Positions 27,862-55,102 of a stretch of DNA of 64,000 bases are shown here, piece by piece. A program made the position numbers and the translations under genes. Source of the stretch: Alphaproteobacteria bacterium (lineage in GTDB: Bacteria > Pseudomonadota > Alphaproteobacteria > UBA9219). Within the stretch, counting starts at the first letter, position 1; the number at the start of each line of letters is the position of its first letter. The notes beneath the pieces are model-generated. The model saw only the letters and a program-made list of their open reading frames with translations. It was not told where the DNA came from and ran no database searches. Location: contig JAQUHK010000002.1 of assembly GCA_028683655.1 (NCBI GenBank), positions 996-64,995 on the forward strand, given 5' to 3'.

Positions 27862-29090
27862 GCCGCCAGTGAAAAAATCGGGTCATGTCTTGCCGCATCG
27901 GGACTGATAAGTTTAAGGGGCCGTGACGGCGCATTATGTTTTTGCGCCGCCTTGCGCAAGTCAAGGCTTGCCGTTTGCATCGGACGATTACCTAGCACAC
28001 GCTCTTTTCCGCCGATGGCTTTGATTGCGGCGGCAATCTCCGGCTCCTCCAAAACATGGATGTGCATCGGCGGTGTCATGACAGGTTCTCGACGTTTAGG
28101 GGCTAACAGAATGATGTTCTGGGCATCGAACAGGGCCGCAAAAACCTCTCGCACACTCCCGTCACAGGGGATTTGAGGACTTGGCGCGCTTTGGACAAGG
28201 CCGCCCCAGCTACGCTCGCCAATCTCTTGATCCGCTGCTTTGAGTATAGACGACACCACACATTCCAAAACACCTGCATTCGGCAGGCTGCCGTTGCTGA
28301 TAAACTGGCATTGCGTTACAGGCGTTCCCTTAAAGGTAGAAAGACCCTTGGTAAAGCTAGCCATCACCTTTTGCTTCGCATTCGGGCTTTCCCAACTCAC
28401 AACAAAGTTATTGGGATCAATCGTTCCGTCAGCCATCCGCACAAACTGGACATCCACGGGTACTTTGAATCTATCTTCAAGCCCATGCACGCTCTCAATC
28501 TTGAAAAGTGCACTCTCTTCATCCTTACCGAGATGCGCTCCCAACTTTTCTTGGATCGTGACAATACTTCTATTGTCCGGCGCAAACTCGAATATCTCAC
28601 CGACAGGTACACTGCCATCCTTGAACCCATGCGTTGCGTAGTAATCAATGCTGGCTTGAATAAGAGAGTGGCCGAGCCCGCCCTCTGGACGCCTCTTTGC
28701 ATATGGCTTCTCAAGAATTATCTTCTTCATCTCGGAAGGCAGAATGCATACATCCTCGCTATAAATCCCGCGATGAACATCGATGTCATTTCCGTTTCTT
28801 TGCAAAAAGAGTGAACGGAAATTGATCGTCGCACCAACAATCTTTGGATCGCAAGTATCCCATGCAGTGGCAAAGAATAACACTTCAACGTCGCCTGCAG
28901 ACATGACTTTCATGGCGCGTCGGAAACCAACAGCGTCAAATGTCGCTCCATGGATTTTGGCTTCATGTTGAATCGAGTCGCGCAGAATGCCGCTCAACGC
29001 ACAATTGTGGAGGATGTCTTTCTCGTTCTGGGGCAACACGGCGACGTTGAGTCCGCCCATGAGCTGTTGAAAGTTTTTTGTTTCAATCAT
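27858..29090 (-). CDS. Conserved island-backbone hypothetical protein (410 aa)
   Basis: About 75% identical paralog at 52198..53445. No recognisable catalytic motif. Confidence 0.55.
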   Translation of the reverse strand: MIETKNFQQLMGGLNVAVLPQNEKDILHNCALSGILRDSIQHEAKIHGATFDAVGFRRAMKVMSAGDVEVLFFATAWDTCDPKIVGATINFRSLFLQRNGNDIDVHRGIYSEDVCILPSEMKKIILEKPYAKRRPEGGLGHSLIQASIDYYATHGFKDGSVPVGEIFEFAPDNRSIVTIQEKLGAHLGKDEESALFKIESVHGLEDRFKVPVDVQFVRMADGTIDPNNFVVSWESPNAKQKVMASFTKGLSTFKGTPVTQCQFISNGSLPNAGVLECVVSSILKAADQEIGERSWGGLVQSAPSPQIPCDGSVREVFAALFDAQNIILLAPKRREPVMTPPMHIHVLEEPEIAAAIKAIGGKERVLGNRPMQTASLDLRKAAQKHNAPSRPLKLISPDAARHDPIFSLAA

Positions 29091-29167
29091 TGTGCGACAC
29101 CCAAAATTTGAGGAGCCAAAACTAATCCGAGTTTATCACAAAATCCTGCACATTCACTGGGGGCTTA

Positions 29168-29821
29168 TTACTTTCGTTTCTTTTTGGGCAGGCCGGAGCT
29201 TTTTGCCCAGAAAGCATCGAACTCACGAAGGTAACGCTGGGCGACCTGCTTGGAATAGATGGTTACGCATTCGCGTTTGGAGGCGTTATCTGTCAGCGGG
29301 ATAACGACATAGTCCCCATAAAGGTACCACGGGGCCACATCCTTAAACTCGTCATCAAGGAGCTTATAGCTGCAATAGCTGAGCGGTGCCCCCAGCTCAC
29401 CTTCTTGCACAAGAACCTTGGCATCCAGCCCTTCGATGGCTTCCATGCGTGCAATATGTTCGGCGGCATAATCGTCGGCAATCGGCATATAACGCGCATC
29501 CCCGAAATTGAACTGGCGAATACGACCACCTTTGCGCACAGTTTCGTAAATATGGTCGAGAAGCTGGCGATACCCAGTTTTTCCGCTGTAGGTACGCATC
29601 TGGTGCTTGCGGACACAAACGCCTTCATTCTCGGTAAACTCGATCCCTTCCTGATCCAAAACAGTCAGGATACGCGCTAGCGTTCTTTCTTGGGGCTGCA
29701 CGGTTTCATTTTCAATCTGGCGGATCGTCAGGCGCGTCAGCTCGCACTGATCGGCCAATTCTTCCATCGACCAACCGAGAAGCCCACGTGCGCCCCGTAT
29801 CTGTCTGCCTGTAATGCTCAT
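29168..29821 (-). CDS. XRE-family HTH regulator with C-terminal unknown domain (217 aa)
   Basis: MSITGRQIRGARGLLGWSMEELADQCELTRLTIRQIENE. Near-identical copy at 53523..54176. Confidence 0.7.
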   Translation of the reverse strand: MSITGRQIRGARGLLGWSMEELADQCELTRLTIRQIENETVQPQERTLARILTVLDQEGIEFTENEGVCVRKHQMRTYSGKTGYRQLLDHIYETVRKGGRIRQFNFGDARYMPIADDYAAEHIARMEAIEGLDAKVLVQEGELGAPLSYCSYKLLDDEFKDVAPWYLYGDYVVIPLTDNASKRECVTIYSKQVAQRYLREFDAFWAKSSGLPKKKRK

Positions 29822-30138
29822 AACGCTTCATCCTTCTAAAATAATCATTATGGTTGTTTATACCATATGAATATGAAGAAAGCGAGAACATTCTTATGGT
29901 GTAACGTTCGAAATCTGCAAAAAATGTTTGGTCTGGTCAACAGGAATACGGCTGAACTGCCTCATAAACGTTGTTTATCAATACATTAGCCGCTAAATCC
30001 ATTCTGAAAGCAATTTGCAATCATTTTGTATATTCGTATTGACATCGTAACAGAAAGGTGCTATGGTGCCTCTCAGATTGATAAGAAACTTTAGTAGCCA
30101 TAGCCCAAACCGATTTTTAGCACCAAAGGATGAAGACC

Positions 30139-30660
30139 ATGAAAAAATCCCTTAAGAGAACGACCCAGAAGGTCAGAGCGGAGCAGGCTCCATGCCCCGA
30201 ACGCTTCCAGCACAGCGGTGGGCTGCGCCGCGATCTTGTCAAAAGCAATGGCAAGAAGAAGCTAGATACGTTGCGTTACCGTGCCCGCTGGTCGAGCCCG
30301 CTCGACCGCTATTGTGAGAAGAAGCTGATCGGCTATGCCCAATATGAGGCGGGCATCCGGTTCTGGAAGGCCTATCACCACGCCGTGTCGGGCGGAGCCG
30401 CCTGTTCGGTGCGTGCCAGCCGCATCGATAGCCCTGCGCGGCTTGGTCTGCCGGATCGTTTGCGCCGCGCCCTAGCTTATGTCGAACAAGCCTATGCCGT
30501 CCTCACCGCCGATGTGCTTGGTGTTGTGATCGACGTATGCGCCTATGACCAGCCAGCAGCCAGCCCGCAGGAGCTAGGCCTGTTGCGCAAAGGCCTTGGC
30601 CGCTTGGCACAAGAATGGGGGATGGCGGCAACGGAGCTGTGCCAGCCAAGACGCAGCTAG
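30139..30660 (+). CDS. Conserved backbone hypothetical protein (about 173 aa)
   Basis: Paralog at 54496..55017. aaagga RBS before the ATG. Confidence 0.5.
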   Translation: MKKSLKRTTQKVRAEQAPCPERFQHSGGLRRDLVKSNGKKKLDTLRYRARWSSPLDRYCEKKLIGYAQYEAGIRFWKAYHHAVSGGAACSVRASRIDSPARLGLPDRLRRALAYVEQAYAVLTADVLGVVIDVCAYDQPAASPQELGLLRKGLGRLAQEWGMAATELCQPRRS

Positions 30661-30711
30661 CCCCAACCAGTTTTATACTCGGTCAGTCATTTTAAGAGAG
30701 AACATTAACGA

Positions 30712-30744
30712 CCCCCAGTCCGGCCAGACTGGGGGTTTCTTTTT
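30712..30744 (+). terminator. Rho-independent terminator (GC hairpin plus T-run)
   Basis: CCCCCAGTC-CGGCCA-GACTGGGGG followed by TTTCTTTTT. Identical element at 55070..55102. Confidence 0.6.
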
Positions 30745-30765
30745 GCCTAGATCAGATCGTGAAAA

Positions 30766-30789
30766 GGTTGGCGGCTACGCCTGCCAACC
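30766..30789. promoter_or_regulatory. Inverted repeat GGTTGGC-N10-GCCAACC upstream of mobC; candidate oriT / MobC-relaxase binding site
   Basis: Seen in sequence; conserved at 55124..55147 before the second mobC. Confidence 0.3.
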
Positions 30790-30832
30790 GTTCGCGTGAA
30801 TCTGATCGATAACCAAAGAAAGGAGGCCCCTT

Positions 30833-31417
30833 ATGTCCTCAGACACAAACAACCGCCCGCCCATCACCCCTCAGTTCCGGCACACAGCCCGCGCCGTGTG
30901 TCGACCCCTCGGTCTTTATGACAGCCTGAAAAATCAAGTCCCGCCCCAAAGCGGCGAGACACAAGAACGGTCAGACACTTTGTCTGACAAAAAAGCTAAA
31001 AGCTTCGCGCAAGTTGCGCCTTTGGTCAGACCACCAGTGGTCAGACCAAAGCCATGCGAGCTAAAGCTCGGAAGAGAAAGACCTCATCGCCTGATGGCAA
31101 GGTTCTCCGACGATGAAAAGGCTTTCGTTCAGCGGAAGGCAAAAACCGCCCGCCTATCGTTGAGCGAATATATCCGTGTCTCGGTCTTGGGGGATGTCTA
31201 TGTCTCGACCGTTGATCCGGAGCGGCAAAAGCTTCTGCACGATTTGAGCCGTGAGCTTGGTTATCAGGGCAACAACCTTAACCAGATCGCCAAACACCTC
31301 AATGCAGGCGGGGAGTCCCAGCAAGGCGAAGGCATGCTGGCGGCGATCTTTGACTCGCTTGTTGACGCTCACAATGCCGTGCGCCGCGCCATGGCAGAAA
31401 GGAAGCGTTATGAATGA
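30833..31417 (+). CDS. mobC: MobC-family mobilization protein (ribbon-helix-helix)
   Basis: RLSLSEYIRVSVLG and LSRELGYQGNNLNQIAKHLN match MobC hallmark motifs. Confidence 0.8.
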   Translation: MSSDTNNRPPITPQFRHTARAVCRPLGLYDSLKNQVPPQSGETQERSDTLSDKKAKSFAQVAPLVRPPVVRPKPCELKLGRERPHRLMARFSDDEKAFVQRKAKTARLSLSEYIRVSVLGDVYVSTVDPERQKLLHDLSRELGYQGNNLNQIAKHLNAGGESQQGEGMLAAIFDSLVDAHNAVRRAMAERKRYE

Positions 31418-32157
31418 TTATTAAATCAACCATACGCGGCGGCTATCTTTCGGCGGCCCAATATATGAAGGATATTGGCGAGAACGAGAAAACGCGCATT
31501 GTTGAACTGAGTGATCCAAAGGCCAAAGACCTTGACGATGCCTGTTATAAGATGTGGGTGATCGCTTGCCCAACCAAGGTTAAAAAGCCGCTTCACCACA
31601 TCAGCATCAACCCGATGAAGGGCGAGCATCTGACCGACAAGCAGGTTCTGGCCATCGCGGACAGGTGCGAAGAGGTTTATGGCTATAAAATGTTTCATCA
31701 CCAGCGTGTGATTGTCGAACACGTCAAGGACGGGCGGCAGCACTTTCACGTTATCTGGAACCGCGTGAGCCTTGTCACGGGCACGACAGTATGGCCGGGG
31801 CATCACTGGAAAAAGTCCAAGCAAGTCGCTCGCGAGATGGAAGTCAGGCTTGGCCTTAAACGACCACAGCCAAGGAGTACGGGAGCCAAGGGAAGCAAAA
31901 CGAGAACAGCAAAACCGCGTTCGACAGGCTTGCGATTATCGAATCCGGACAGGAAGTCACCTCAAACAAAAAGCAAGTCCACGCCGCCGCCAGCTCGCTA
32001 TAGACCGGAGAGAAAGAAGGCCGCGCCACCACCGCCTATGCAGCCCACGCACCCCAAGAAAAAACGCTGGCCAGAGCAAGCCATCATCGACTGGGAAGTC
32101 TGGGGTCATTTATGGCCGAGGCGCTTCTTCGCGCTCTGGCCGGAACTGACGATTTAA
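31414..32157 (+). CDS. MobA/MobL-type relaxase (relaxase/mobilisation nuclease domain)
   Basis: N-term MIIKSTIRGGYLSAAQYM (catalytic Tyr region); HHISINP; HFHVIWNRV histidine triad. ATGA overlap with mobC. Confidence 0.75.
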   Translation: MIIKSTIRGGYLSAAQYMKDIGENEKTRIVELSDPKAKDLDDACYKMWVIACPTKVKKPLHHISINPMKGEHLTDKQVLAIADRCEEVYGYKMFHHQRVIVEHVKDGRQHFHVIWNRVSLVTGTTVWPGHHWKKSKQVAREMEVRLGLKRPQPRSTGAKGSKTRTAKPRSTGLRLSNPDRKSPQTKSKSTPPPARYRPERKKAAPPPPMQPTHPKKKRWPEQAIIDWEVWGHLWPRRFFALWPELTI

Positions 32158-32594
32158 GGAGCTTCGTTGCGTTCGCCCAAATCCTGATAAAAACGCAGCA
32201 TATAGCCGTCCGGATCAAGAACGATAAATTGTCGGTTGCCGACATAAACATCATCGGCCCGATACCATTTTTCTTCAATGGGAAGGAAGACTGTAGCTCC
32301 GGCTTTTTGTACGCGAGCATAAAGACCGTCAACGTCATCCGTTTCGATTTGCAGGTTCATACCACGACCAAATGGAGGCTCCAGCGACGCGGCAGTCCAG
32401 CTCCTGTCGCTGCTGGGGACAAGTTCGTCGAGCATGATCCGTGCGCCTTGGCGTTCGAGCATGGCGAAGCCTTCTTCTTCTCGCTGATACTGAACCTTGA
32501 AACCCAGCACATCGAGATAGAAAGACAAGCTTCCCTTAATGTCGCGGCACATGAGTTCCGGTGTCAGGACTGTATACAAAAAATCATTACTCAT
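32154..32594 (-). CDS. VOC / glyoxalase-bleomycin-resistance family protein
   Basis: MSNDFLYTVLTPELMCRDIKGSLSFYLDVLGFKV is a typical VOC N-terminus. Island A only; a remnant is at 56433..56684. Confidence 0.6.
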   Translation of the reverse strand: MSNDFLYTVLTPELMCRDIKGSLSFYLDVLGFKVQYQREEEGFAMLERQGARIMLDELVPSSDRSWTAASLEPPFGRGMNLQIETDDVDGLYARVQKAGATVFLPIEEKWYRADDVYVGNRQFIVLDPDGYMLRFYQDLGERNEAP

Positions 32595-32863
32595 CACAAA
32601 CCTCATACAGAGAAAGGGGATCATGCCACCGAACCGCATTAAAACAAAATCATTTTACCTATCGAAACACAAACGCCGCGTTTATCGCGTCATGGAGGAA
32701 AACACAGCCACAGTATTCTTTTTATCAAAAACCCAAGCCGCCCTTTATGTCCTCGGACGGCAACTCATGAAGATGATGGACAAACAGCAATAAACCTCAA
32801 ACCCGCTCCGTAAGGAGCTTCTTTTAACCCACCCGCCGGAACGCCTTCCGAGCGGGATTTTTT

Positions 32864-33856
32864 ATGGAGAAACGCATGGAACAGACCAACAAATTTAACA
32901 TCTACAGCCACGTCACGGACAAGATCATTGCCGACCTCGAAAAGGGCGTTCGTCCTTGGCAAAAACCTTGGAACTCTGCCCACACAAGTGGGCGCATTGT
33001 CCGCCCGCGCCGTCACAATGGTCTGCCTTATAACGGTGTCAACATCCTGCTTTTGTGGAGCGAGGCCTATGACAAGGGCTATCAAAGCCCCACATGGATG
33101 ACTTTCCGGCAAGCGCAAGAATATGGTGGTCACATCCGCAAAGGTGAGAAGTCTTGCACCGTTGTTTACGCCAGCACCTTCAGCAAAACCGAACAAGACG
33201 AGACGACAGGCAAGGATATTGAAAAGGATATTCCCTTCCTGAAGGGCTATCGCGTCTTTAATGCCGAGCAAATCGAAGGCCTGCCGGAACGGTTCACAGT
33301 TCAACCAGAGACGAGCGAGCTTTCCAAACCTGAACGGCTTGATCTTGTCGATCAGTTCATTCGCAACACAGGAGCCGACCTGCGCCATGGCGGCGATAAG
33401 GCCTTTTATGCCGAAACGCCGGATTATATCCGCGTGCCGCGTATAGAGGCTTTCAAGGAACCCGAAAGTTATTACGGCACCCTGACGCATGAGCTGACGC
33501 ACTGGACAAAACACAAAAGCCGTCTTGAGCGGACTTTTGTAACCGACTGCAACGCGCCAAGAAGCTTCGGCGATGAATCTTATGCGAAGGAAGAACTCGT
33601 CGCCGAAATCGGCTCGGCGTTCTTGTGTGCCGATCTCGGCATCACGCCAGAAGTCCGTGAAGACCATGCGTCCTATATCGGTCACTGGCTCAAGGCTCTG
33701 AAAGATGATCGCAAGCTGATCTTCTCAGCCGCCGCCCATGCAGGCCGCGCCTCTGAATATCTGAAAGACCTGCAAAGCAAAGTCACGTGTGTGCCCACGC
33801 CGCCCAGTGCAGCCGCGCCAACGTTATTGCCCGCGACAACCTTGGCTCAACAATGA
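32864..33856 (+). CDS. ardC: ArdC-like antirestriction protein (N-terminal ssDNA-binding domain plus C-terminal zincin HExxH metallopeptidase)
   Basis: KIIADLEKGVRPWQKPW N-domain; HELTHWTKH zinc-binding motif. Confidence 0.8.
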   Translation: MEKRMEQTNKFNIYSHVTDKIIADLEKGVRPWQKPWNSAHTSGRIVRPRRHNGLPYNGVNILLLWSEAYDKGYQSPTWMTFRQAQEYGGHIRKGEKSCTVVYASTFSKTEQDETTGKDIEKDIPFLKGYRVFNAEQIEGLPERFTVQPETSELSKPERLDLVDQFIRNTGADLRHGGDKAFYAETPDYIRVPRIEAFKEPESYYGTLTHELTHWTKHKSRLERTFVTDCNAPRSFGDESYAKEELVAEIGSAFLCADLGITPEVREDHASYIGHWLKALKDDRKLIFSAAAHAGRASEYLKDLQSKVTCVPTPPSAAAPTLLPATTLAQQ

Positions 33857-33869
33857 TGGGAGGTTCTGC

Positions 33870-34289
33870 ATGACAGAAAACAATCCTTATCAAAGCATAC
33901 ACGGGGGCAGGGAAGAGCGGCTCGATTTTCCAGAATTAAAGGAACTTCCCAGTCTCGCCACCGCAAGTCAAATTGCCTGCTTTTTAAAATGTTCGAGACG
34001 GCATGTTTTGAATGAGTGCCATGCCGGACGCATTGAGTTCGTCAACATTGCAGGCCGTTTTTTAATCACACCACACAGTCTCAAAAATTATATTCAAGAA
34101 AGGATACAACCATGTCAAAGAGCAATAAAGGAGCCTATCTCAAATGGATTGAAGCGCGTAACGCGTGGTACATTGTCTGGTTCGAACACGGACGCGAGTA
34201 CAAGAAATCGACGGGCACTCGAAATCGCATTGAAGCTGACCAAGCACTCAGTTTGCACAACATCGAAAAAGACCAACCCATTGACATAG
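33870..34289 (+). CDS. AlpA/excisionase-like HTH protein (putative Xis); 3' end overlaps the integrase by about 177 nt in another frame
   Basis: ELPSLATASQIACFLKCSRRHVLNECHAGRIEFVNIAGRFLI is an AlpA-like HTH. The true stop is uncertain. Confidence 0.4.
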   Translation: MTENNPYQSIHGGREERLDFPELKELPSLATASQIACFLKCSRRHVLNECHAGRIEFVNIAGRFLITPHSLKNYIQERIQPCQRAIKEPISNGLKRVTRGTLSGSNTDASTRNRRALEIALKLTKHSVCTTSKKTNPLT

Positions 34290-35272
34290 TAAGCCCGACA
34301 CGCCGCATTATTGCAGATGTCCTTGTCTCATATGCTGAAGAACATGCCGTTCATGTTGCAAGCTCGACAACGATTGGCTTTAACATCAAGGCACTCATTC
34401 CATTTTGGGGACACCGTACCGTAGCCGATGTGCGCCCTGTGGCTTGCCGCGAATATCTGGCCTATCGACACAAGAATGCCCGCAGACAGGGTAAAACGCT
34501 TTCCGATGCTACTATATCACGGGAACTTGGGGTTCTCGCGGCAGCGATCCGACACGACTATAAACAGGGCCGCCTTGCTGCTCCGGCTCCCGTTTGGAAA
34601 CCAGCGCAATCTGCTCCGAAAGACCGTTGGTTGACGCGTGAAGAGGTCGCTCATCTGCTTAGAACTGCCCGTAACAAGAGGAGAGCAGACCACAAACATG
34701 AAAGTCGAACGCGCACGCACTCTTTCTCGCGTTGGCATTTGTCTTTCTTCATTCTTTTGGCTCTTTATACTGCTGCCAGAAAAGAGGCCATTCTGACACT
34801 GACTTGGTCACAGGTTGATCTTCAGAAAGGCATTATTGACCTGAACAAGCAGGGAGCCAAAATCACGAACAAACGTCGGGCCATTGTCCCCATACCGAGA
34901 AAGTTGATGACGTTTCTTCGTATTGCCAAAAGCCGTGCGCCTGAAATTTGCGACGACAAATGCGTGATGGATTACTTTGGCAAGCCAATTCTACGCATTG
35001 ACCAGAGCTTCCGTCGTGTTGTCGCAGATGCAGGATTGAAGAAGGTTACACCTCACACACTGCGCCACACAGCAGCAACATGGATGGCACAGGCAGGCGT
35101 GCCCATGTGGGTTATTTCAAAATACCTTGGCCACACCAGCACACGGACGACCGAGCGCATCTATGCTCATCACAATCCAGACTTTTTGGTTGAAGCAAAA
35201 GAGGCGTTGGAGAGGGGTGCAGGTAAGCAGAAAGAAGTGATCAAGAATCTTTCCACACCGTCACCATGCTGA
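34112..35272 (+). CDS. int: Tyrosine-type site-specific integrase (island A)
   Basis: TPHTLRHTAATWMAQAGVPMWVISKYLGHTSTRTTERIYAHH (R...HxxR...Y catalytic box). Confidence 0.85.
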   Translation: MSKSNKGAYLKWIEARNAWYIVWFEHGREYKKSTGTRNRIEADQALSLHNIEKDQPIDIVSPTRRIIADVLVSYAEEHAVHVASSTTIGFNIKALIPFWGHRTVADVRPVACREYLAYRHKNARRQGKTLSDATISRELGVLAAAIRHDYKQGRLAAPAPVWKPAQSAPKDRWLTREEVAHLLRTARNKRRADHKHESRTRTHSFSRWHLSFFILLALYTAARKEAILTLTWSQVDLQKGIIDLNKQGAKITNKRRAIVPIPRKLMTFLRIAKSRAPEICDDKCVMDYFGKPILRIDQSFRRVVADAGLKKVTPHTLRHTAATWMAQAGVPMWVISKYLGHTSTRTTERIYAHHNPDFLVEAKEALERGAGKQKEVIKNLSTPSPC

Positions 35273-35428
35273 TGACATGATGTATCAGAGCAGGCTCACA
35301 CCGTTATCCCCGCTGGCACAGGCCAGCGGGTGTAGCGCAGAGGCCGGTACACGGGGGTTCTCTGTCACCCTTCGCAAATATTTGTTGCTATGTTGCGTAA
35401 GAAGAGACTAGAGAACACGATCTGATCA

Positions 35429-35902
35429 TTACAGGTTATTAAATATGGGGTATCCACATCTAAGACAGTTTTCCAAGCCCAGTGCGCTGTTGTAATGGAC
35501 GCCACCGCCCCATCCACACTGTGGGCAAAATTCATCTATCTCAGTATCAAGCCACTCCCATGGACCTATATATTCTGGAACAGCATCGTTATCGCAGCCA
35601 AGAAACTCTCCTACATTTGCTTGAACGCAGATAAAAGATGACGTGCTTTCAGTCTTCAACTCATCCAGTACGTTCCATGGCTCAATGGAAAACCATTCGC
35701 CATTAAGCCTGTATTTTTCATACTTTTTGTGAAGTTGCTTTTCATGCGACTGGTCAGCAGTTTCAACCCAACCCATTATTGCAAGTTTTCTAGAATTTCC
35801 TGTCTGGAGTTGTATAATTCTGTCATTTGGAGCACGACTAAACCCAATCTTGATTCTAGAATTATCACTGTCCTCATTTTCGATAATAAAATATGTACAC
35901 AT
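35429..35902 (-). CDS. T5orf172 (GIY-YIG-like) domain protein with C-terminal zinc ribbon
   Basis: RIKIGFSRAPNDRIIQLQTGNSRKLAIMGW...HEKQLHKKYEKYRLNGEWFSI; CPQCGW...CLRCGYP. Confidence 0.55.
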   Translation of the reverse strand: MCTYFIIENEDSDNSRIKIGFSRAPNDRIIQLQTGNSRKLAIMGWVETADQSHEKQLHKKYEKYRLNGEWFSIEPWNVLDELKTESTSSFICVQANVGEFLGCDNDAVPEYIGPWEWLDTEIDEFCPQCGWGGGVHYNSALGLENCLRCGYPIFNNL

Positions 35903-35952
35903 ATAAAGCCCAATCTTGCTATAGCCATAAAAGGTTACTTACAAAAAAAACA

Positions 35953-36198
35953 TTAAGACTCTGGCCCTTCCTCATCAGAGAAAAAGTCAGCGACTTCAGT
36001 ATTTATATGCTCAACCATTGAGATAATGCTCTCCTTCTCTGTATCAGTAAATTTACCCTCCAACTCAGGCTCATCTAGCCTTCTTGTATTGATCAGATCT
36101 TTGATCATGTCGGTATAACTAAATGCTGTCTTTTCACCAGCAACCAGTTTATGAACCGATATTTCTAACTCTTCATTTTTGCTAAATACCAATTTCAT
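35953..36198 (-). CDS. Small acidic hypothetical protein (81 aa)
   Basis: ORF overlaps the downstream gene start by 4 nt (operon-like). Confidence 0.35.
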   Translation of the reverse strand: MKLVFSKNEELEISVHKLVAGEKTAFSYTDMIKDLINTRRLDEPELEGKFTDTEKESIISMVEHINTEVADFFSDEEGPES

Positions 36199-38522
36199 TC
36201 TTCACCTCGAAAGTCTTTGAGATTGTACTTCTTTACTCGCTTTTTAATTGATGATTTTCCTCCGTCTGCGACTTCGGCTACTAGGTCTACCACGCTCTTT
36301 CCACCAATACTGCCCTCTAGTGGATTTGAAGAGATAGTTATTTTATTATTATCATTAGTACACATCACTATGTTTTGGGCATCACCTAACATAGGTATTG
36401 TGGCGTTATGAGAAACAAGAATGATTTGTTTTTTTAATTTGCATTTCTTGATCGCTGAAAGTAGTCCTGCGTTAATATAGCTGGTGGCAAGGTTATCTTC
36501 TGGCTGATCAATTATTAAAGGCGCACAATCAGAATCCCATCCAAGCACCAAGTCTAGAATGACGGATGTCTTCCACCCAGCACTCAAATGATCAAAGTTT
36601 CTTCCGTCCTTTGTTATGATTTTGTAGGTTTTTTTATTCATTTCTGAAAACCTACGGTTCACATAGTTCTCGAACTCTTGATAACTAGTGATCTTAGGGT
36701 CTCTTCTCTTAAACCTGTCTTTAAACAAGGACTCTGGCGTTATTCCTTCAAATGAACCAATCTGTATATCTGCTCTAAGGGTTTCGTTTATTACCTCCAG
36801 AAAGCTGTTCTTAGATAACTCAAACTTATTCTCAATATGAAGTCTATGCCCCATGGAAACGATTGGTTTATTATCAATCGTTATTGAGAACTGAGATATT
36901 TTGTCCAGTGCTTCATAAAACTGTTTGTGGTATTTCAAATATTTTTCCATACTATCCAATAATTTTTGAAAGCTTTGCGTTCTCGATTTAACCTTTTGAT
37001 CTTCTTTCTCCTGAGCATTATCTAATTCTAACCTATGCTCCTCAATTACTTCTCTAACAGTTTTTTCAAGAAGAGAGTTATTGAACGCTTCAATTAATTC
37101 ATTATTTAGGGCCTCAACTAATTTAGTGTCGTGCGTTACGGTGGGATTGCTTGAGAGGATTCTATCTATTTCATCAAGAACTCTCTTGTGACGATCATAA
37201 TCTGCTTCTGAATAACCAATTAACTTCGACTCCCTATCATTTGGTAGAATAAACCGTATAGGATTATCATGAATTTCTTCTGTAACTATCAATCTAGATA
37301 AGGCGGGGATTTTGCTTAACGCTCCGTGCAATAATTCTATTTCTGTTATAGACTGAGCAAGGTCTGTTAGATTAGAGCTTAGGTCATGTAAGACATTTAC
37401 AATTTTTTGTCTTTCAACTTCATCGGGAGGGAAAACGCTTTTTAAAATTGAAATATTCTCAATAGTATTGTTGCGATCTCTGTGATCACAAACTTTCATA
37501 ATATAGTTCTGATTAAAATAATGTGGGTGTTGTCCTGATGGATTTTTAACCTCTATATCTTTTATGTTGTAAGGAGTTCTAATGTAATCACTCTCTTCAA
37601 TTTTATTCACAATTTTACGATACAAAGAATCAACAAATAATGATTTTCCACTAGAAGAACCGCCGATCACAACATTTAATCCAGGTGTCAGCTTTACGTC
37701 TATGTCAATATTTTCATTTTTGAGTGAGACCGATTCAATACATTCAACCCAAGCATCTGGTTTTTTATCATATACCAACCTAGATGATTCAGAGAGCGAC
37801 AACCTAAGACCACTGAATGTTGGAGATGCGAGCATCCATGTTGGGACAAAATTTGATGCCTCTTGACCTGCTTTACAATCAGGATAGGTTTCGGGCGTGT
37901 AATTGTCTGAGGCAGTGATTAGGTTTACAAACTCCTTTATGCCTAGACGCTCAAAATAGTTATGCGTTCTTTCTAAACCACTAGTTCCTCTCGCTGTAAA
38001 TCCATCAAAATGATTGTAATAGATATTTCTTTCCATGGTTTTGTCGAACTCGACCCCATTTGGTATCGATTTATCAAATGTAGAGTGGTTTTGTCCTCCA
38101 TGCGGAAGCAGTAAAAACTCATAATTATCGAAACAATTCATTATTGCTTCTAAACTTGGAACATCATCATCATTGGTAACAGTTTTTTTAGGATACAGAC
38201 TGTCTAGTTTTTTATTAACGTCATCAATAATTGTTTCGTTGATTTTTTCAGCGTTAAAAATCATATGACAATGATAAGGCCTGCATTCTGTATAGTTTCT
38301 TATATGTAGTTCTACACCGAGAAGGATATTGTCAACAGATTGAACAGCTTCCAAATATACCTTTTTGTTGATAAAGTTATGATCCGTTATGGAGATTAAG
38401 TATGGCTGTTCCTCTGCAATTTTTTCTATGCCTGCTATTAGCGCCTCCAAATCATAATTCTCATTAGGGCAGTCAGGATTCTCTGAAGTGTGGATATGAA
38501 CATCGATGAATACTGGTTGCAT
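36195..38522 (-). CDS. PHP-domain phosphoesterase fused to ABC/SMC-like ATPase (Ppl-like candidate anti-phage protein)
   Basis: N-term FIDVHIHTS and ISITDHN (PHP His motifs); Walker A GGSSSGKS; Walker B PLIIDQPEDNL. Confidence 0.6.
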   Translation of the reverse strand: MQPVFIDVHIHTSENPDCPNENYDLEALIAGIEKIAEEQPYLISITDHNFINKKVYLEAVQSVDNILLGVELHIRNYTECRPYHCHMIFNAEKINETIIDDVNKKLDSLYPKKTVTNDDDVPSLEAIMNCFDNYEFLLLPHGGQNHSTFDKSIPNGVEFDKTMERNIYYNHFDGFTARGTSGLERTHNYFERLGIKEFVNLITASDNYTPETYPDCKAGQEASNFVPTWMLASPTFSGLRLSLSESSRLVYDKKPDAWVECIESVSLKNENIDIDVKLTPGLNVVIGGSSSGKSLFVDSLYRKIVNKIEESDYIRTPYNIKDIEVKNPSGQHPHYFNQNYIMKVCDHRDRNNTIENISILKSVFPPDEVERQKIVNVLHDLSSNLTDLAQSITEIELLHGALSKIPALSRLIVTEEIHDNPIRFILPNDRESKLIGYSEADYDRHKRVLDEIDRILSSNPTVTHDTKLVEALNNELIEAFNNSLLEKTVREVIEEHRLELDNAQEKEDQKVKSRTQSFQKLLDSMEKYLKYHKQFYEALDKISQFSITIDNKPIVSMGHRLHIENKFELSKNSFLEVINETLRADIQIGSFEGITPESLFKDRFKRRDPKITSYQEFENYVNRRFSEMNKKTYKIITKDGRNFDHLSAGWKTSVILDLVLGWDSDCAPLIIDQPEDNLATSYINAGLLSAIKKCKLKKQIILVSHNATIPMLGDAQNIVMCTNDNNKITISSNPLEGSIGGKSVVDLVAEVADGGKSSIKKRVKKYNLKDFRGEE

Positions 38523-38851
38523 GTGTTAGTTCCATTCTGAATGGCAAAAGCATTTCATAAACTAACTTATTTAATCCAGATTCGCAGTAAGTTGTTTCAG
38601 AATGAACCAGCATATCCCCTGTTGTCTCATCCCGCATAGCAGGCAAAAAATAGGCAAAAACGACAAAACAGCCCTGAGGAGGATATATTTATCTGATTCT
38701 GTTGGTGTCTCCTACGGGATTCAAGCTTTCGGCCCCGAGTTTAGGAAACTAGAGGGCGTCCCTCATGTGGATATACATTTCAATAACGCGTTAACGATTT
38801 AACTCGCACGGAGACTCGCACAAACGAAAAATGAGTGATGTCGGAGGGTAT

Positions 38852-38916
38852 CTAACCCCTTGAAAAGCGTGGTGGGTGCGACAGGGATTGAACCTGTGAC
38901 CCCTACCGTGTGAAGG
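38852..38916. repeat. Direct repeat copy 2 of tRNA-Val 3' half (junction between islands A and B)
   Basis: 65-nt match to 59031..59095. Confidence 0.8.
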
Positions 38917-39097: not shown

Positions 39098-41377
39098 TTA
39101 ACTAGCTTTAACAATACGCAATGTTCGTTTAGTAAAACCAGTCAGCTCTGTAGCATCAATGGATTCTGGTATTGTATCTGTCACGTTTTCACCATGGTGA
39201 TATTGCTTAGTATAATCGTTTATCTGATCCAACTCATCGTAAAGACCGGCAGCTGGGTGGATATCTCCACCTGCACGAATTTTTCCGACAATGTCACCAA
39301 GCCAATCTGAGTCCACGAATTGCACCGGATACGTGGTGCGCATATAGGTTTCCAAAACAGTCCGCATTTTACGGATGATGTCGATATGCTGACCTGCACC
39401 AGACGTTATAAACGCTTGTAGGTCATCTGTATCGGTTGCGGTGCGACCCTGACAGGCTTTTTCTAAGTCATGCGGCAGAATTTTGACGCCTTGCTTCTTG
39501 TTATCCGCCAGAATGATGGAGGCCCTATCAGAGGGTTGGCATTTATCCCAAAGCTGTTTGAGGAATGTCGGGTCGTGCGATAGCACAATCACCTGTGCAC
39601 ATAGACGGCCAACCTTGATGATCTCGTGGATGGTCTGCCTGCGACGGAAAGCATCCTGGCTGTTAAAGGGATCATCAAAAATGATAATTTTCCGTGCAAG
39701 CCCTGGGTCGCGTTCCAGATGCGCTAAGAAAAAGGCCAGAGCCAGCGTCGAGCGATCGCCTGCGCTCAAGGTGTTTTTGAAACTCGGTGTATTCGAAGGG
39801 GTGTTGCCGTTGCCGATGTCGATTTTCGTTCCGTTGATACCGAGTTGATAGGTTGATGTGGCGGAACCGCCTAAATAGCTGTGCTTCGTCTCTGCAATTG
39901 AAAAATCAGCATTAAAAGCTTCTAGAAATTCATTGATCCGCGCCTGATAGGGAGCGATGACTGTCTGTGTGTGGTTGTTAAGTTGATTCCTGATAACTTT
40001 CTTTTGAGTTTCAATATCGGCTTGCTCTGTTACTAGCTTTTTATATGCGACACAAAGAGGAACGACGGCGGCACTGAAGCGGGACTTGTTGAGCTTCAGC
40101 CTATTTAATTCTGCTGTGGTTGCAGGCAAGTCAGCCGTTCCAGCGGCGGTTTTTTGGTTTGAGACAAGAACGTTGGCGGCATCAACGGCCTTATTAAATG
40201 ATGAGATTTTGGATTTCATCACCTCATAGGTGGCAAGCGCCTGTAAAAATGTCTGATCGGTTTCAATAGCCTCCAACGGGGCATGTGCTTTCTTGTCTAT
40301 CAGTGCAGTAGCGGCTGTGCGCAGATCTGTGATTGCTTGTGCTAAATCGGGATGAATCTGCAATTCGTGCTGATCTAGAGCACAATATTTAGCCCAGTAC
40401 TCAATTGCGGCCCCGTGGTTTGCGTTGAAGGTTTCCAACTTAGCAAGAGCCGTATCGCCCATATTTAGCTCGATGCTATCCTTCGCTGCTTTGATGTCAC
40501 GGCGCAGTGTTTTGTACCTCTCGCTGAAGACGGATTTATAGGCCGCGATCAATGGAATATCCTTTGTGCCCTGACCGCAGAATGGGCAGGACTCTCCCGC
40601 ATGGTCGATCTGTTGCACGGCCCAACTCACGCCGTCTTTGGTTGTCATACCATGGGTGGTAAAATGAGTTTTAATCTGCTGTTCCGCATCCGTAGCGATA
40701 TCGTCGATTGTCCTGGCCAGAAGGTCGATGAAGCTGGTCGGCAATTCAGGAACGATGACTTTAGACAGTGGATTGCGTGCCTTGATGGCGGCAGATTCCT
40801 TTACGGCACTAAGCGTTTTCTCCTGTGCAGCAATTTTATGGTCAATATCGTCAATCTGCTGAAGAGAAAGGAAATCGTCTAGCTTCATGTTGCCTATATG
40901 CGGCTTTATGGCATTTGCCGCATTTTTCACTTCCGTCGTTTTCTTGCGGCCATCTTCGGCAAGGGCCTTTTCCTTCTCGGCCAAAGCAACACCAGCATCG
41001 CCAATAATTACACGATACAAGTTTCGCTTCTGGTCGCTGTCGACTACATCGCCGGAATGGACGTTCTGGGCTACAAAGGCACTATCAAAAATGGCAAGTT
41101 CCGGCCTAGCCGCATCCCAGGATGTTCCATTGAACGTTACAAGGCCGCTGCTGGTCAGAAGCTCGACAGAGGCAGCGTCAGTCACGCCCAAGGTCTTGCG
41201 TCCGATTACATGGGCAGGGTCATTCTCCTTCACCGAGCGGAGAATGGCGCAGATTGTGGTCTTACCGTGCCCGTTTGCTCCAAAAATAAAGCTGTGCTTA
41301 GCCAGCGAAGTATCGCCGACGCCAGCAGAATTGCGGAAGCGCCCCACATTCTTGATACCGACAATCTTTTTCAGCAT
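39098..41377 (-). CDS. Rad50/SMC-like AAA ATPase with central CxxC zinc-hook; RloC-like putative anticodon nuclease / abortive-infection ATPase
   Basis: Walker A GANGHGKTT; long coiled-coil; central CPFCGQG; Walker B IIIFDDPFNSQD. Confidence 0.5.
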   Translation of the reverse strand: MLKKIVGIKNVGRFRNSAGVGDTSLAKHSFIFGANGHGKTTICAILRSVKENDPAHVIGRKTLGVTDAASVELLTSSGLVTFNGTSWDAARPELAIFDSAFVAQNVHSGDVVDSDQKRNLYRVIIGDAGVALAEKEKALAEDGRKKTTEVKNAANAIKPHIGNMKLDDFLSLQQIDDIDHKIAAQEKTLSAVKESAAIKARNPLSKVIVPELPTSFIDLLARTIDDIATDAEQQIKTHFTTHGMTTKDGVSWAVQQIDHAGESCPFCGQGTKDIPLIAAYKSVFSERYKTLRRDIKAAKDSIELNMGDTALAKLETFNANHGAAIEYWAKYCALDQHELQIHPDLAQAITDLRTAATALIDKKAHAPLEAIETDQTFLQALATYEVMKSKISSFNKAVDAANVLVSNQKTAAGTADLPATTAELNRLKLNKSRFSAAVVPLCVAYKKLVTEQADIETQKKVIRNQLNNHTQTVIAPYQARINEFLEAFNADFSIAETKHSYLGGSATSTYQLGINGTKIDIGNGNTPSNTPSFKNTLSAGDRSTLALAFFLAHLERDPGLARKIIIFDDPFNSQDAFRRRQTIHEIIKVGRLCAQVIVLSHDPTFLKQLWDKCQPSDRASIILADNKKQGVKILPHDLEKACQGRTATDTDDLQAFITSGAGQHIDIIRKMRTVLETYMRTTYPVQFVDSDWLGDIVGKIRAGGDIHPAAGLYDELDQINDYTKQYHHGENVTDTIPESIDATELTGFTKRTLRIVKAS

Positions 41378-41397
41378 TACGCCTCCTTTGCTTTCTC

Positions 41398-44300
41398 CTA
41401 CGCCACCGCTTTCACCCCAATCACATCCATCAGCTTGCCGTAGCTGTCGACTACGTCGTACTTAACCTTGTCCTTTTCGATCTTCACGTTGATCTTATCG
41501 AAGAATTTGCGGGCGCATTCGATCTTCTTCTTCTCGATCTCGCGCAACTCCATGGACGACATGCTGCCCTTCGTTTCGGCGACGAAGTAGATATATTTGA
41601 CCTTACCCTCGGTAAAGGAGATGGCCCAATCGGGGTTATAGTCGCCCACAGGCGTAGGTATCAGGAAGCCACGCGGCAGCTTTGCATAGACGACAACCTC
41701 GGTGCTGGTGTCCAGTTCGCGCACAAAAGCGCGCTCGTTTTTGGAATCCGTGATAACGTAGTCGTAAATATGCTTCTTAAGCTTCTCGCTGGCCTTCGTG
41801 AAGTCCTGACGATTTTGTCCTGCGGTAAAGATGCTGGTGTCATAAGTTCCCGCTACTTCATCATAGGCAAGCTTCTCGACGATAATGGTAGCCTTCTGCT
41901 CATTGATCAGACGCGAGGCTTCGGCGATAAACTGTTCGGGGTTCTGTTTGAACTGCTCGAAAACAACCTTTTCTATGCCGCCCAGGATATCTGCCAGTGT
42001 TTTGCGGGTCAGGTGAACATTCTCGGCGATTTTGCCCAGCAGATCATATTTGACCGATGAAGCGATGGAAGCGTTTAATACGCCCGTTTCTGTATTCTTG
42101 AGCGTAAAGCCTTCGCCATCAGCAAGCTGAGCGTCGGTGATTTGGTCGCCCTGAATGCCGGCATGGATGGTGTATTGAAGAGGCGAGACTTTAAGCTCGC
42201 TGTTCAAGGTTGAAACGCATTTGCCGACAAGCTCGGTTGAGTCGAAATCAACACGATAGACAGCGCGCTTGTTGATCCGCGCCCACAATTCCTGAAACTC
42301 TTTCTTGTTGAAATTGTCGTTGAGTGGGTTCGGCTTGGGCTTTCGGTCGTCTCCAGGTTGGGGCAACTGGGATTCACTAAACACGCTGTCGATCAGGGCG
42401 ATAATGCCTGCCTCATGTGGTTTCAGATCGTCAGGAAGAGCCGCAAGCGTGCCGTCAGCCTTGGCCTTATGATAGGCTTCAGTGATCTTGTCATCCGTGT
42501 CCGTATAGTCGTTTTTGACAAGCCAGCGTTCGATTTGCTTCGCTAACGCCGCCGTGATCTCTAATGTACCGCCGTCTGCGGTCGGAATAATCTTGCCCGT
42601 AAAGTACTCTTCGTTGGCCTGGCGCGGGCGGGCAGAAAGAGAGTCGCTGATTTCTCGCTGAAGGTTGCCGACGAAGTCTTTGTAGCTCTCGCTTGCGACG
42701 ACAGTAAGAATGTTGATCTCATGCACCGTGGCGGGGTGATCCATGCGTTCACCGTTCTGGTTGACGGAGAGACGTAGGCCGCGACCCACTTCCTGACGGC
42801 GTGAGATAGTGTTATCGCTGTGCTTGAGCATGCACATGATAAAGACATTAGGGTTGTCCCAACCTTCGCGCAGGGCAGAGTGGGAGAAGATGAACCGCAC
42901 GGGCTCATCAAAAGAAAGAAGCCGTTCTTTGTCTTTCAGGATTAAATCATAGGCATCAACGTCATTGGACAACCCTGCGTTATCTCCACGAGCCTCAACA
43001 TCAGGGTCTTTGAGGTGTTTGGTTTTCTTGTCGATAGAAAAATATCCGGCATGGGTCGATGATGCGTCGATGCCCTCAAGATGCTTGCGCCAGTCGTGAT
43101 CATCCAACGCCAGTGTGCCCAGATATTCCTGCTTCGCGTTTTCGTATTCTTCTTCGAAAATTCGGGCATATTCGCCTTTTTCGTCATCGCGGCCATAGTC
43201 GCGGTACTTCACCACTTCATCGATGAAGAACAGTGACAAGACCTTGATCCCCTGCGTGAACAGTGCAGCTTCTTTTTCAAGGTGCGCTTTGATTGTTTCA
43301 CGGATTTGAATGCGGCGAATGGCGGCCTCGGTTACGTCGCCCGTGGCATCGCCCACCGTCAGAACTTCGCCGTTGGTAAATTCAACGGTATCTTGCGTGT
43401 AGTCGATCTGCGAGACTACGAAGCCCTTGTACTGGTCAAGGCTGCCTGAGAGGTCGTAAAGGTTGTCGCCCTTGTTCAAGCGTTTGACGACTCGTTTGAT
43501 CCCGCCAGTCTGCTTGATTTCCATCTCTACCTTAGCGACAGGCGGGGCGTTCTTCGAGATTTGAATGGATTCCAGATATAGGTAGGCATTCGTTCCCGCC
43601 AACCCTCTAACGGTCAGACCACGCACGGCGATCTTCTTGACTAGCTTTTGGTTATAGGCGTCCAGAGCGTCCAAGCGATGCACCTTATTATGCTCAACCT
43701 TATGAGTAGCCGAATAGCGTAGGATCATAAGCGGCTTGAACTTTGGCAGGGCATCCATTGTTGCCTTGCCGCCCATCTTTTGCGGTTCGTCAAGGATCAG
43801 GATCGGGCGATTGCTGGCAATAACATCAATGGGCTTGCGCGACTGAAAGTCGTCCAATTCATCATAAATACGTCTGTTATCTGCTCCCTTTGCATTAAAC
43901 GCCTGAATGTTGATGATCATGACATTAATGCCCGCATCGGAAGAGAAGCTCTCCAGATGATGTAGCTGCTTGGAATTATAGATAAAGAACCGCACTTTCT
44001 TGCCGTAGGCTTCCGTGAAGTGATCGGCGGTGATTTCAAATGATTTATAGACCCCTTCGCGGATAGCGATGCTGGGAACCATGACGATAAACTTGTTCCA
44101 ACCATATCGCTTGTTCATTTCGAAGATGGTTTTGATATAGCAGTAGGTTTTGCCCGTACCTGTTTCCATCTCCATGTCGAGATTGATTTTACATCCAGCA
44201 CTGACCGCAAGATGGTCGGACAAAGGCAGGTTCTGGCGTTTCTGCACGGCATGAATGTTCTGGATCAGCTGCGTTTCGGTCAAGCGAAGGTCGGCGTTTC

Positions 44301-44466
44301 TAAACCCTTCATATTCGGACTCTGGCCGGTAATGCTCACCTTTCTTTATGATACCGGGGTCAATGCGATAGGACGCGCCCGTCACAAGGGGCTGCCCCGC
44401 AAAGCAATCCACCACGGATTCCACGGCATTGGTCTGATAGGGCTGGACTTTAAATTTGAGCTTCAT
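41398..44466 (-). CDS. res: Type III restriction enzyme Res subunit (SF2 helicase plus C-terminal PD-ExK nuclease)
   Basis: [16 protein letters not shown]-box-like; C-terminal [10 protein letters not shown] endonuclease motif; N-term [11 protein letters not shown]. Confidence 0.8.
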
Positions 44467-44485
44467 GTTTGACTATCCAGTGGGT

Positions 44486-45535
44486 TCATAGTTTCCAACG
44501 TCTTTTGGGCGGCTTCTGTTTGCACAAGTCGAGCAATTCAGAGAAGCGACTTGGATCTATGGCTTGCCGCACTATCTCAAAAATAAATTTTTGTGGTTTT
44601 CTTGTTTTTTGGAAAACAAGAACGCATGGGCGGCTTCTATATTCAAGTTCGCTGATAGTAAGACGAGCTGTAGAGTTTTTGTTATGAGTAAATGTTAGTG
44701 ATCGCTGTTCTTTCGTAGCCATGTTTTCTAGTGTCAGCTCAATAGAACTTCCGACCTCGCCACCTAATCCAAAAAACCTTTGTGCGGCGTCCAACGGAAT
44801 TTGAATCTGACGACCCTCATTACTGGTTTCCCTAGGCATAACCTCCAGAATCATTTCTCCGCTACTGACCTTCGCGGTTCGCGGACCACGGCTAGTGGAC
44901 GACTTGGTTTTCTTTTTGCCACTGGTTCGCATTGACCATGTAAATGTTCCACCTTGAGAAATTTTTGCCCTTTTTTCGCCGTGTTTTTCCTTTTCAGTCC
45001 TGTAACTCTTTAGTAACTGGGGAGTGGCCAGCTCGCTAGCCTTATGAATTTCTTCATGCCAGCGCAGGAGATTGGCATCAGCCTTGGTAATTTTTGTGAC
45101 AGAAGCGAACTCGATGTTGTTCGCTAATCCGTCTTCTGTCAGGTTGTTGCTTCCGGACAGAATAGTGATGCTTGTTCCCCCCGAAAACCAGATGACTTTA
45201 GGATGGAATGTACCTGTGTAGTGGCGCATGAGACGAACTTCCATTCCGTCTCCCTGCATGGCTGCTATCGCATCAGCATCGGTAAGTGCGTGGTCGGTTC
45301 CGATATATGCTGTGACGGAACGATTTGAGGATTTACTCCAGCTCAATATGCTGCTGCGGAGCCGTCTCCATCCTGCGACAGTTACAGCGTAAAAATACAA
45401 TCTCAGTTGGGTCGAACTTGTTTCCGTACGACACAGGTTGATAGCCGCATCAAGAAAATCGGTAACGGCCCACGCCGCAGTTCTCATGGTAGGAGCTGGG
45501 CTTGTTAGGTCTACGGATTTGCGCCTAGCAATCAT
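44486..45535 (-). CDS. Phospholipase D-family nuclease (HKD motif)
   Basis: FHPKVIWFSGGTSITILSGSNNLT matches HxK(x)4D(x)6GSxN. Confidence 0.65.
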   Translation of the reverse strand: MIARRKSVDLTSPAPTMRTAAWAVTDFLDAAINLCRTETSSTQLRLYFYAVTVAGWRRLRSSILSWSKSSNRSVTAYIGTDHALTDADAIAAMQGDGMEVRLMRHYTGTFHPKVIWFSGGTSITILSGSNNLTEDGLANNIEFASVTKITKADANLLRWHEEIHKASELATPQLLKSYRTEKEKHGEKRAKISQGGTFTWSMRTSGKKKTKSSTSRGPRTAKVSSGEMILEVMPRETSNEGRQIQIPLDAAQRFFGLGGEVGSSIELTLENMATKEQRSLTFTHNKNSTARLTISELEYRSRPCVLVFQKTRKPQKFIFEIVRQAIDPSRFSELLDLCKQKPPKRRWKL

Positions 45536-53445: not shown

Positions 53446-53522
53446 TGTTGCGACACCCATAATTTGAGGAGCCAAACTAATCCGAGCGTATCACAAAATC
53501 CTCTACCTGTACTGGGGGCTTA

Positions 53523-55017: not shown

Positions 55018-55069
55018 CCCCAAACCCGTTTTATACTCGGTCAGTCATTTTAAGAGTGAACATTACCGA

Positions 55070-55102
55070 CCCCCAGTCCGGCCAGACTGGGGGTTTCTTT
55101 TT
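55070..55102 (+). terminator. Rho-independent terminator (copy of 30712..30744)
   Basis: Same hairpin plus T-run. Confidence 0.6.

Follow-up and report, generated by a model that had tools for sequence, protein, structure and literature searches.

In the 64,000-nt stretch of DNA analysed here (the window), a contig portion of an Alphaproteobacteria metagenome-assembled genome, the tyrosine integrase of a mobile island, island A, ends at 35272, 3.58 kb short of the attachment (att) repeat at 38852, and the intervening DNA carries three minus-strand open reading frames (ORFs) encoding proteins of 157, 81 and 775 amino acids. The locus raises three linked questions: what these genes are, whether they form one system, and how they are placed in the island. 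With somewhat more confidence than doubt, we conclude that the interval is a slot holding two independent, horizontally acquired modules, and that the larger one, in which a PHP-ATPase fusion is paired with a small acidic protein, is most likely a Ppl-like nuclease acting against phages or other mobile DNA. The features at issue are the following.

35273-38787, no strand: variable, low-GC cargo slot of island A, from the integrase A stop codon to an att-proximal motif
35429-35902, minus strand: gene for a 157-amino-acid T5orf172/MUG113 (GIY-YIG-like) protein with a C-terminal CxxC...CxxC zinc ribbon
35953-36198, minus strand: gene for the 81-amino-acid acidic partner protein, its start overlapping the stop of the 775-amino-acid gene by 4 nt (ATGA)
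36195-38522, minus strand: gene for a 775-amino-acid PHP phosphoesterase fused to an SMC/Rad50-class ABC ATPase

A first-pass annotation had described the same three genes as defence-like cargo, likened the fusion protein to the single-gene antiphage system Ppl, and suggested a secondary insertion hotspot next to att. Its observations hold throughout, from gene coordinates and lengths to domain assignments and defence-like character, and its interpretation holds in part: the slot and the domains are supported, and the Ppl identity, the single-gene organisation and the treatment of the three genes as one unit are not.

A conserved two-gene unit

The PHP-ATPase gene is consistently accompanied by a small partner. 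A homologous ORF of about 71-81 amino acids lies directly downstream, mostly overlapping the stop codon, in 11/11 independent loci, including the most divergent one (L014, 45% identity), where it was recovered by profile comparison (E 3.9e-5). An all-against-all comparison of flanking ORFs across the 11 loci revealed no other recurrent gene. Because the small ORF follows in every locus, the conserved unit comprises two translationally coupled genes. These loci span Alpha- and Gammaproteobacteria, Planctomycetes, Desulfatiglandales and Bacteroidales; clade hosts include Shewanella, Cellvibrionaceae, Pseudohongiella, Cycloclasticus and Endoriftia, to which genome scans added Planctomycetes, Desulfatiglandales, Bacteroidales, Woeseiaceae, Agarivorans and another alphaproteobacterium. 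In the Agarivorans sp. locus (L012 6001-9646; NZ_CP194041.2), an insertion of about 1.2 kb splits the PHP-ATPase between residues 653 and 707 and leaves the partner intact; it is probably an insertion sequence element that inactivates the PHP-ATPase gene.

The 81-amino-acid protein has an isoelectric point (pI) of 4.43, with 20 aspartate and glutamate residues against nine lysines and arginines, and its family is acidic throughout (pI 4.05-4.70), with 26 invariant positions. Its AF2 model (pLDDT 88.6) comprises three strands, a helix, a further strand and a second helix, followed by a disordered acidic C-terminal tail. Searches of Pfam, NCBIfam, PADLOC and PHROGs with this protein returned no matches.

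Architecture of the PHP-ATPase

The 775-amino-acid protein is laid out approximately as a PHP domain (residues 1-260), an ATPase N-lobe (261-365), a coiled-coil insertion (366-545) and an ATPase C-lobe (546-775). In a Pfam scan its sequence gave no PHP match, and a weak AAA_21 tail alone was seen. The diagnostic motifs (DxHxH, TDH, GxE, H, PH and SD[NC][HY]) are nevertheless present; the metal-ligand residues D7, H9, H11, D47, H48, E71, H84, H141 and D206 are invariant in a 40-member superfamily alignment, and 18/40 of the aligned members match Pfam PHP (PF02811) directly. Since the ligand set is invariant and these members match the family model, the PHP assignment can be regarded as secure by homology despite the Pfam miss.

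The ATPase half carries a full complement of motifs, namely Walker A (G287-GSSSGK293), Q-loop (Q338), signature (LSAGWK, S647-G649), Walker B (IIDQPED, D672-E675) and H-loop (SHN, H705), and in the same alignment G287, G292, K293, Q338, S647, G649, D672-D676 and H705 vary little or not at all. The two lobes are parted by a helical insertion of ~180 residues. Top Foldseek matches of the AF2 model (pLDDT 70.9) were the heads of SMC2, cohesin, JetC, RecN, Rad50 and AriA, with E values of 1e-6 to 1e-3. Sequence searches of the PDB, with the single sequence and with a profile, gave only marginal Rad50 matches (E about 0.1-0.2), and neither a solved relative nor a Ppl or TrlF structure was retrieved; an exact-sequence look-up returned no record.

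Placement among PHP-ATPase families

A HMMER search of 1.84 billion representative sequences yielded 5,414 relatives, among which a tight full-length clade (identity >=40%, E <1e-150) is set sharply apart from full-length relatives of ~770-950 amino acids at 25-30% identity. More than 1,162 homologs are 60-82% identical to the query, all about 775-790 amino acids long and nearly all unannotated; the clade size of >1,100 is counted in clusters at 90% identity. The query scores 187 bits against the NCBIfam model for TrlF (cutoff 350), 111 bits against Spaf_1101 (cutoff 475) and 75 bits against Ppl (cutoff 1000). Its clade relatives reach 192-206 bits with the TrlF model, and distant relatives likewise fall under all three cutoffs, save genuine TrlF proteins (P0262, 617 bits; P0270, 518 bits). 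On this comparison, the protein belongs to an unnamed subfamily, distinct and highly conserved, within the TrlF/Spaf_1101/Ppl superfamily of PHP-ABC ATPases. No description of the subfamily was found in the literature on the TrlF family, Spaf_1101 and Gao_Ppl, and it was absent from E. coli genomes, plasmids and phages.

TrlF, the best-scoring named family, shares the combination of a PHP domain with an ABC/SMC-like ATPase and the motifs DLHxHT, TDH, GxE, PH and the Walker B sequence IIDQPEDNL, and its model (NF045780, 944 positions) is matched in two stretches covering both halves. It differs in overall identity (about 20-27%), in length (~944 residues, i.e. ~170 more) and in the last PHP motif, which reads SDNH rather than SDNY. 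The Photorhabdus TRL operon (trlR-trlF-trlG) also contains a protein of ~79 residues, TrlR, comparable in size to the 81-amino-acid protein; trlR lies upstream of trlF, whereas the small gene here lies downstream and overlaps. A TrlG-type neighbour (AlbA_2 plus HATPase_c_4) is present neither in the window nor in any of the 11 pair loci.

Ppl (Gao_Ppl) likewise unites a PHP domain and an ABC/SMC-class NTPase in one chain, occurs, like the pair, on mobile and defence islands, and has a clearly homologous C-terminal ATPase lobe. Ppl proteins are, however, about 882-894 residues long (~110 more), and only the C-terminal ~125 residues align: the Ppl equivalog NF042955 matches residues 633-764 (model positions 754-880 of 882) at 74.6 bits, and PADLOC Ppl (PDLC02208), the best PADLOC match at 58.7 bits and 7.9e-17, matches residues 640-764 (model positions 771-890 of 894). 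Moreover, Ppl acts as a single gene (PMC11482910), whereas the 775-amino-acid protein has an obligatory partner of ~80 residues. Spaf_1101 (NF045781), of the same superfamily, aligns over residues 232-767 at 110.9 bits, far under its cutoff; the literature search yielded no functional description of this family.

At a broader level, Lamassu LmuB/LmuA, Wadjet JetC/JetD, PARIS AriA/AriB, Gabija GajA and OLD also couple an ABC head with a coiled coil to a nuclease, and PADLOC returned weak GajA and LmuB matches at the Walker A region of the protein. In those systems the nuclease is a TOPRIM, Cap4 or HNH partner, whereas here it would be an N-terminal PHP domain in cis; the pair lacks a kleisin or KITE-like subunit, and the sole partner of the PHP-ATPase is the small acidic protein.

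Mobile and defence-associated neighbourhoods

The G+C content (GC) of the cassette lies under that of its flanks in 10/10 loci, and the surroundings are frequently rich in mobile and conflict genes: SMODS, TIR, HNH and toxin-antitoxin pairs in L004; nSTAND and PIN_12 in L006; and integrases, transposases, MmeI-type restriction-modification (R-M) and SLATT/DRT genes in L008-L013. R-M systems of types I and III are present on the window's own islands, together with GmrSD and a PDC-S06 ATPase.

More distant members of the superfamily occupy comparable positions. P0189 (807 residues, 28% identity; L017-L019 4001-6737) lies within a type I R-M operon ordered hsdR-hsdS-[PHP-ATPase]-[103 aa]-RhuM-hsdM, and one TrlF gene comes after an Eco57I-type gene; TrlF-type genes are found on plasmids, in a P2-like phage and beside R-M genes. 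The 81-amino-acid protein showed no homology to the small genes that follow distant relatives (the 103-residue L017 protein and an ORF in L041), and genes of this kind behind the PHP-ATPase may recur across the superfamily while evolving fast. The phage in question, the P2-like temperate Yersinia phage vB_YenM_42.18 (OM046624.1), encodes its TrlF-like PHP-ATPase (L040 1769-4387) between gpA (replication gene A) and gpQ (portal gene Q), where it is annotated as 'chromosome partition protein Smc'. This interval of P2 is a known cargo hotspot.

Proposed function of the pair

The defence reading is favoured because of membership in the Ppl superfamily, the position of relatives within R-M and phage-borne defence settings, the mobile and defence-rich neighbourhoods and the foreign GC. 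We infer that the pair (36195-38522 with 35953-36198) would constitute an anti-phage or anti-mobile-DNA nuclease system in which the ATPase head binds nucleotide together with DNA ends or structures and, by analogy with Ppl, gates the PHP nuclease. Ppl is a validated antiphage gene whose E. coli product is described as an NTP-inhibited PHP exonuclease, degrading single-stranded DNA in the 3'-5' direction and sensing 3'-OH ends (2026 review, PMC12904381; PMC11482910), and a phage-encoded anti-Ppl protein is known (PMC11482910). This mechanism, a nucleoside triphosphate-gated PHP exonuclease at DNA 3' ends (PMC12904381), may serve as the best available working model for the pair. The small subunit, made in fixed proportion to its partner, would then be regulatory, as an inhibitor or 'safety' subunit or as an adaptor; translational coupling, acidity and strict co-occurrence are what suggest that it may act as an inhibitor, latch or adaptor.

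A bolder version of this proposal is possible, and we advance it tentatively, considering it more doubtful than probable: the pair could be a new and widespread two-component immune system missed by defence-finder models, in which the acidic subunit restrains a Ppl-like nuclease until that subunit is itself removed or titrated upon infection, and in which the His-to-Tyr change reflects a chemistry or substrate different from those of Ppl and TrlF. The acidic subunit might in that case be a nucleic-acid mimic, or a latch on the basic C-lobe of the ATPase.

Several considerations weigh against assigning the pair to defence. The last PHP motif reads SDN-Y208, with the tyrosine invariant in the clade, where TrlF and most relatives have SDN-H, so that the metal site may be altered and, possibly, the activity with it. 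PHP residues 142-258 are of low confidence in the AF2 model, and whole-protein Foldseek reported the ATPase head only, leaving the PHP half without structural support. PADLOC v2 gives no full-length model match for the protein, some contexts of the pair, Shewanella L001 among them, do not readily qualify as defence islands, and identities of 54-63% across phyla are unusually high for a defence gene. TrlF, the nearest named family, has been linked in Photorhabdus to temperature-restricted growth rather than phage defence, a phenotype that maps to trlG, trlF itself being without one. Finally, Foldseek comparison of the 81-amino-acid fold with the PDB and BFVD gave nothing significant, and the role ascribed to that protein is purely inferred.

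Competing explanations

Among the alternatives, the one that survives best is a toxin-antitoxin, addiction or growth-restricting module, with the PHP-ATPase as toxin and the 81-amino-acid protein as antidote, that stabilises the island or restricts growth under stress. It remains a live rival, partly overlapping abortive-infection defence and compatible with it, though we think it unlikely. The overlapping, translationally coupled genes would suit such a module, as would a mobile, low-GC cassette often found among toxin-antitoxin pairs (L004), and the Photorhabdus TRL operon, with TrlF and its 79-residue companion, restricts growth at a high temperature (36 C). That phenotype, however, is the one assigned to trlG (AlbA_2/HATPase_c_4), which has no counterpart here, and trlF mutants were not obtained; in addition, the order of small and large genes differs between the two operons, and the 81-amino-acid protein matches no antitoxin or DNA-binding family.

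A role in housekeeping DNA repair, as a single-chain enzyme resembling SbcCD or Mre11-Rad50 in which PHP replaces Mre11 and which merely hitch-hikes on the island, is very improbable and effectively excluded. The likeness of the ATPase head to Rad50 and RecN, the proofreading exonuclease role of PHP domains in PolX and Pol III, and the UniRef label 'putative ATPase involved in DNA repair' on one homolog would all fit it. Against these stand a patchy, strain-specific distribution on islands, beside integrases and transposases and in variable contexts; foreign GC in every host; a location that sister islands leave unoccupied; and the absence of any significant match to repair families in NCBIfam or the PDB. 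Identity is also high across phyla, which indicates horizontal transfer of the gene.

The neighbouring 157-amino-acid gene requires separate treatment, since it shares strand and low-GC block with the pair, from which it is only 50 nt away, and the three genes might therefore be taken for one defence system. Its product matches the Pfam models MUG113 (PF13455; 1.6e-11, 45.1 bits, gathering threshold 22.3) and T5orf172 (PF10544; 7.5e-8, 33.3 bits, gathering threshold 20). Members of its family are 154-165 residues long, with an invariant GIY-YIG-like, catalytic-like core and four invariant cysteines (C126, C129, C146 and C149), and compared with other stand-alone T5orf172/MUG113 proteins the 157-amino-acid protein is compact, carrying its four-Cys zinc ribbon at the C-terminus. 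The phage PHROGs that it matches either have no assigned function or bear a homing endonuclease annotation; no PADLOC defence-system model is matched save, weakly, PDC-S57 (1.7e-4).

The trio recurs in one further assembly (L020), but that assembly contains the very island described here, its proteins being identical and its int and ArdC neighbours unchanged. A T5orf172 homolog is absent from the other 10 independent loci that carry the pair, in which the third gene differs from locus to locus; conversely, the T5orf172 gene occurs without the pair in L036 (an integrative and conjugative element with ArdC, TraG and RES), L037 (SIR2-HerA) and L038 (Kiwa KwaAB with an AAA_15/21 ATPase), where its neighbours are not conserved. 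Because it is missing from the other pair loci and found alone elsewhere, the T5orf172 gene is independent single-gene cargo, separate from the PHP-ATPase pair. A three-gene system, for which we see scarcely any chance, is accordingly rejected, and the T5orf172 zinc-ribbon protein constitutes a second module that travels alone among mobile and defence islands.

Genuine membership in the single-gene Ppl system is the weakest of the alternatives and at family level effectively refuted: the architecture is the same and Ppl is the top PADLOC match, but the alignment is partial and C-terminal, both TrlF and Spaf_1101 outscore Ppl, the chain is shorter, and the partner is obligate.

The cargo slot between integrase A and att

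The cargo block has a GC of about 0.36, compared with about 0.49 for the remaining window. Its limits are defined by relatives with an empty site (L022, L023 and L027), with which homology stops at ~35233-35272, at the integrase stop codon, and restarts at 38789. The right breakpoint directly precedes a conserved motif just inside the att repeat, which in all relatives comes before the att core.

38788-38826, plus strand: att-proximal motif GCGTTAACGATTTAACTCGCACGGAGACTCGCACAAACG

This motif, present once in the window where 0 matches are expected by chance, is also kept between int and the tRNA gene in L022, L027 and other relatives, and it may be a binding region for the integrase or an excisionase. 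Neither direct or inverted repeats flanking the cargo nor a duplicated copy of the motif around it were found in the window.

The states of the slot were compared across 14 metagenomic loci encoding relatives of integrase A, with the following outcomes.

L022, L023, L025, L027: about 125-140 bp between int and tRNA, no gene between; tRNA-Val (cac), tRNA-Val (gac) or tRNA-Gly (gcc)
L024: 4.7 kb between int and tRNA; HEPN/AbiU2 gene plus unknown genes
L029: 4.2 kb between int and tRNA; one 1302-amino-acid PIN-TPR-GreABC protein
L026: 1032-amino-acid PNP_UDP_1 plus nSTAND NTPase first after int; no tRNA within 8 kb

Since these relatives either are empty or hold unrelated cargo, the comparison supports reading the int-att interval as a slot with variable cargo, empty in some sister islands and occupied by conflict-type genes in others. 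The suggestion of a secondary insertion hotspot next to att is thus upheld in this form, several relatives carrying cargo at the position. In L024, the motif (TTAAC..TTTAACTCGCACGG-like) stands on both sides of the 4.7-kb cargo, at about 9149-9180 and about 13757-13790, which hints at cargo entry by recombination at the motif; the window shows no such duplication.

Tandem islands and their integrases

The slot belongs to one of two tandem islands inserted at a tRNA-Val gene, whose main landmarks are given below.

34112-35272, plus strand: integrase A, a 386-amino-acid tyrosine integrase (Pfam Phage_integrase, 1.7e-25)
38852-38914, plus strand: 63-bp att repeat (repeat family D8), at the boundary of islands A and B
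59049-59123, minus strand: intact tRNA-Val (cac)

The 63-bp repeat consists of 18 nt plus the 3' 45 nt of tRNA-Val and is present in three copies in the window (about 1106-1168, 38852-38914 and 59031-59093), which bound island A (about 1169-38851) and island B (38915-59030). Island A would be described, in our proposal, as a mobilizable island that integrates at tRNA-Val and uses the integrase-att interval as its cargo slot. The first-pass distances were essentially right: 3.6 kb had been given for integrase A, and 22 nt for integrase B (57972-59006), which ends about 24 nt from the repeat at 59031.

The two integrases are 34% identical, whereas a mobilisation module (NikA-like, MobA relaxase and ArdC) is common to both islands at 78-96% DNA identity (28204-33118 in island A, 52559-57036 in island B). 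A shared module combined with divergent integrases on the same tRNA-Val att suggest module shuffling between island families. Relatives of integrase A (70-96% identical) adjoin tRNA-Val or tRNA-Gly genes; those at L022, L024, L025, L027 and L029 (72-96%) adjoin tRNA-Val(cac), tRNA-Val(gac) and tRNA-Gly(gcc). The presence of close relatives beside different tRNA genes indicates that one integrase lineage has switched tRNA targets.

Between the convergent integrase A and T5orf172 genes lies an imperfect hairpin (35302-35337) with arms CGTTATCCCCGCTGGC / GCCAGCGGGTGTAGCG and a 4-nt loop. It may act as a bidirectional terminator; it is without a T-run and was uncalled by the terminator scan. The promoter and terminator scan as a whole gave matches no more numerous than expected from shuffled sequence.

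Further cargo of the two islands includes, in island A on the plus strand, a type I R-M operon (hsdM 2367-4688, hsdS 6784-8136, hsdR 9832-12876), with a GmrSD-type modification-dependent endonuclease containing DUF5655 (4685-6787) embedded between hsdM and hsdS. Two paralogous plus-strand ORFs of 429 and 434 residues (20570-21859 and 23076-24380) match only the catalytic N-terminal part of a class II alanyl-tRNA synthetase (PF01411, 7e-12 and 4e-113), a truncated form that is unexpected as cargo of a mobile island. Island B begins, on the minus strand (39098-47463), with a 759-residue AAA_13 ATPase matching the PADLOC candidate PDC-S06 (1.2e-67), followed by a type III R-M system with res (41398-44466), an unknown 349-residue gene and mod (45532-47463). 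With this ATPase and R-M system next to the junction, defence cargo therefore flanks the repeat at 38852-38914 on both sides.

Implications

The locus provides a clean case of a defined cargo slot between an integrase and its att site, in which sister islands display both empty and occupied states and differ in the conflict genes they carry.

Equally relevant is the family to which the larger module belongs. PHP-ATPase fusions such as Ppl, TrlF and Spaf_1101 form a little-studied branch of immunity based on SMC-like nucleases, with a mechanism described for Ppl only, and the clade identified here is large, distributed across phyla, well conserved and unnamed in PADLOC and NCBIfam, with an obligate mini-subunit of unmatched fold. 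Should the pair prove to be antiphage, this family would gain a two-component variant, and with it a tractable system for asking how such nucleases are prevented from attacking self DNA.

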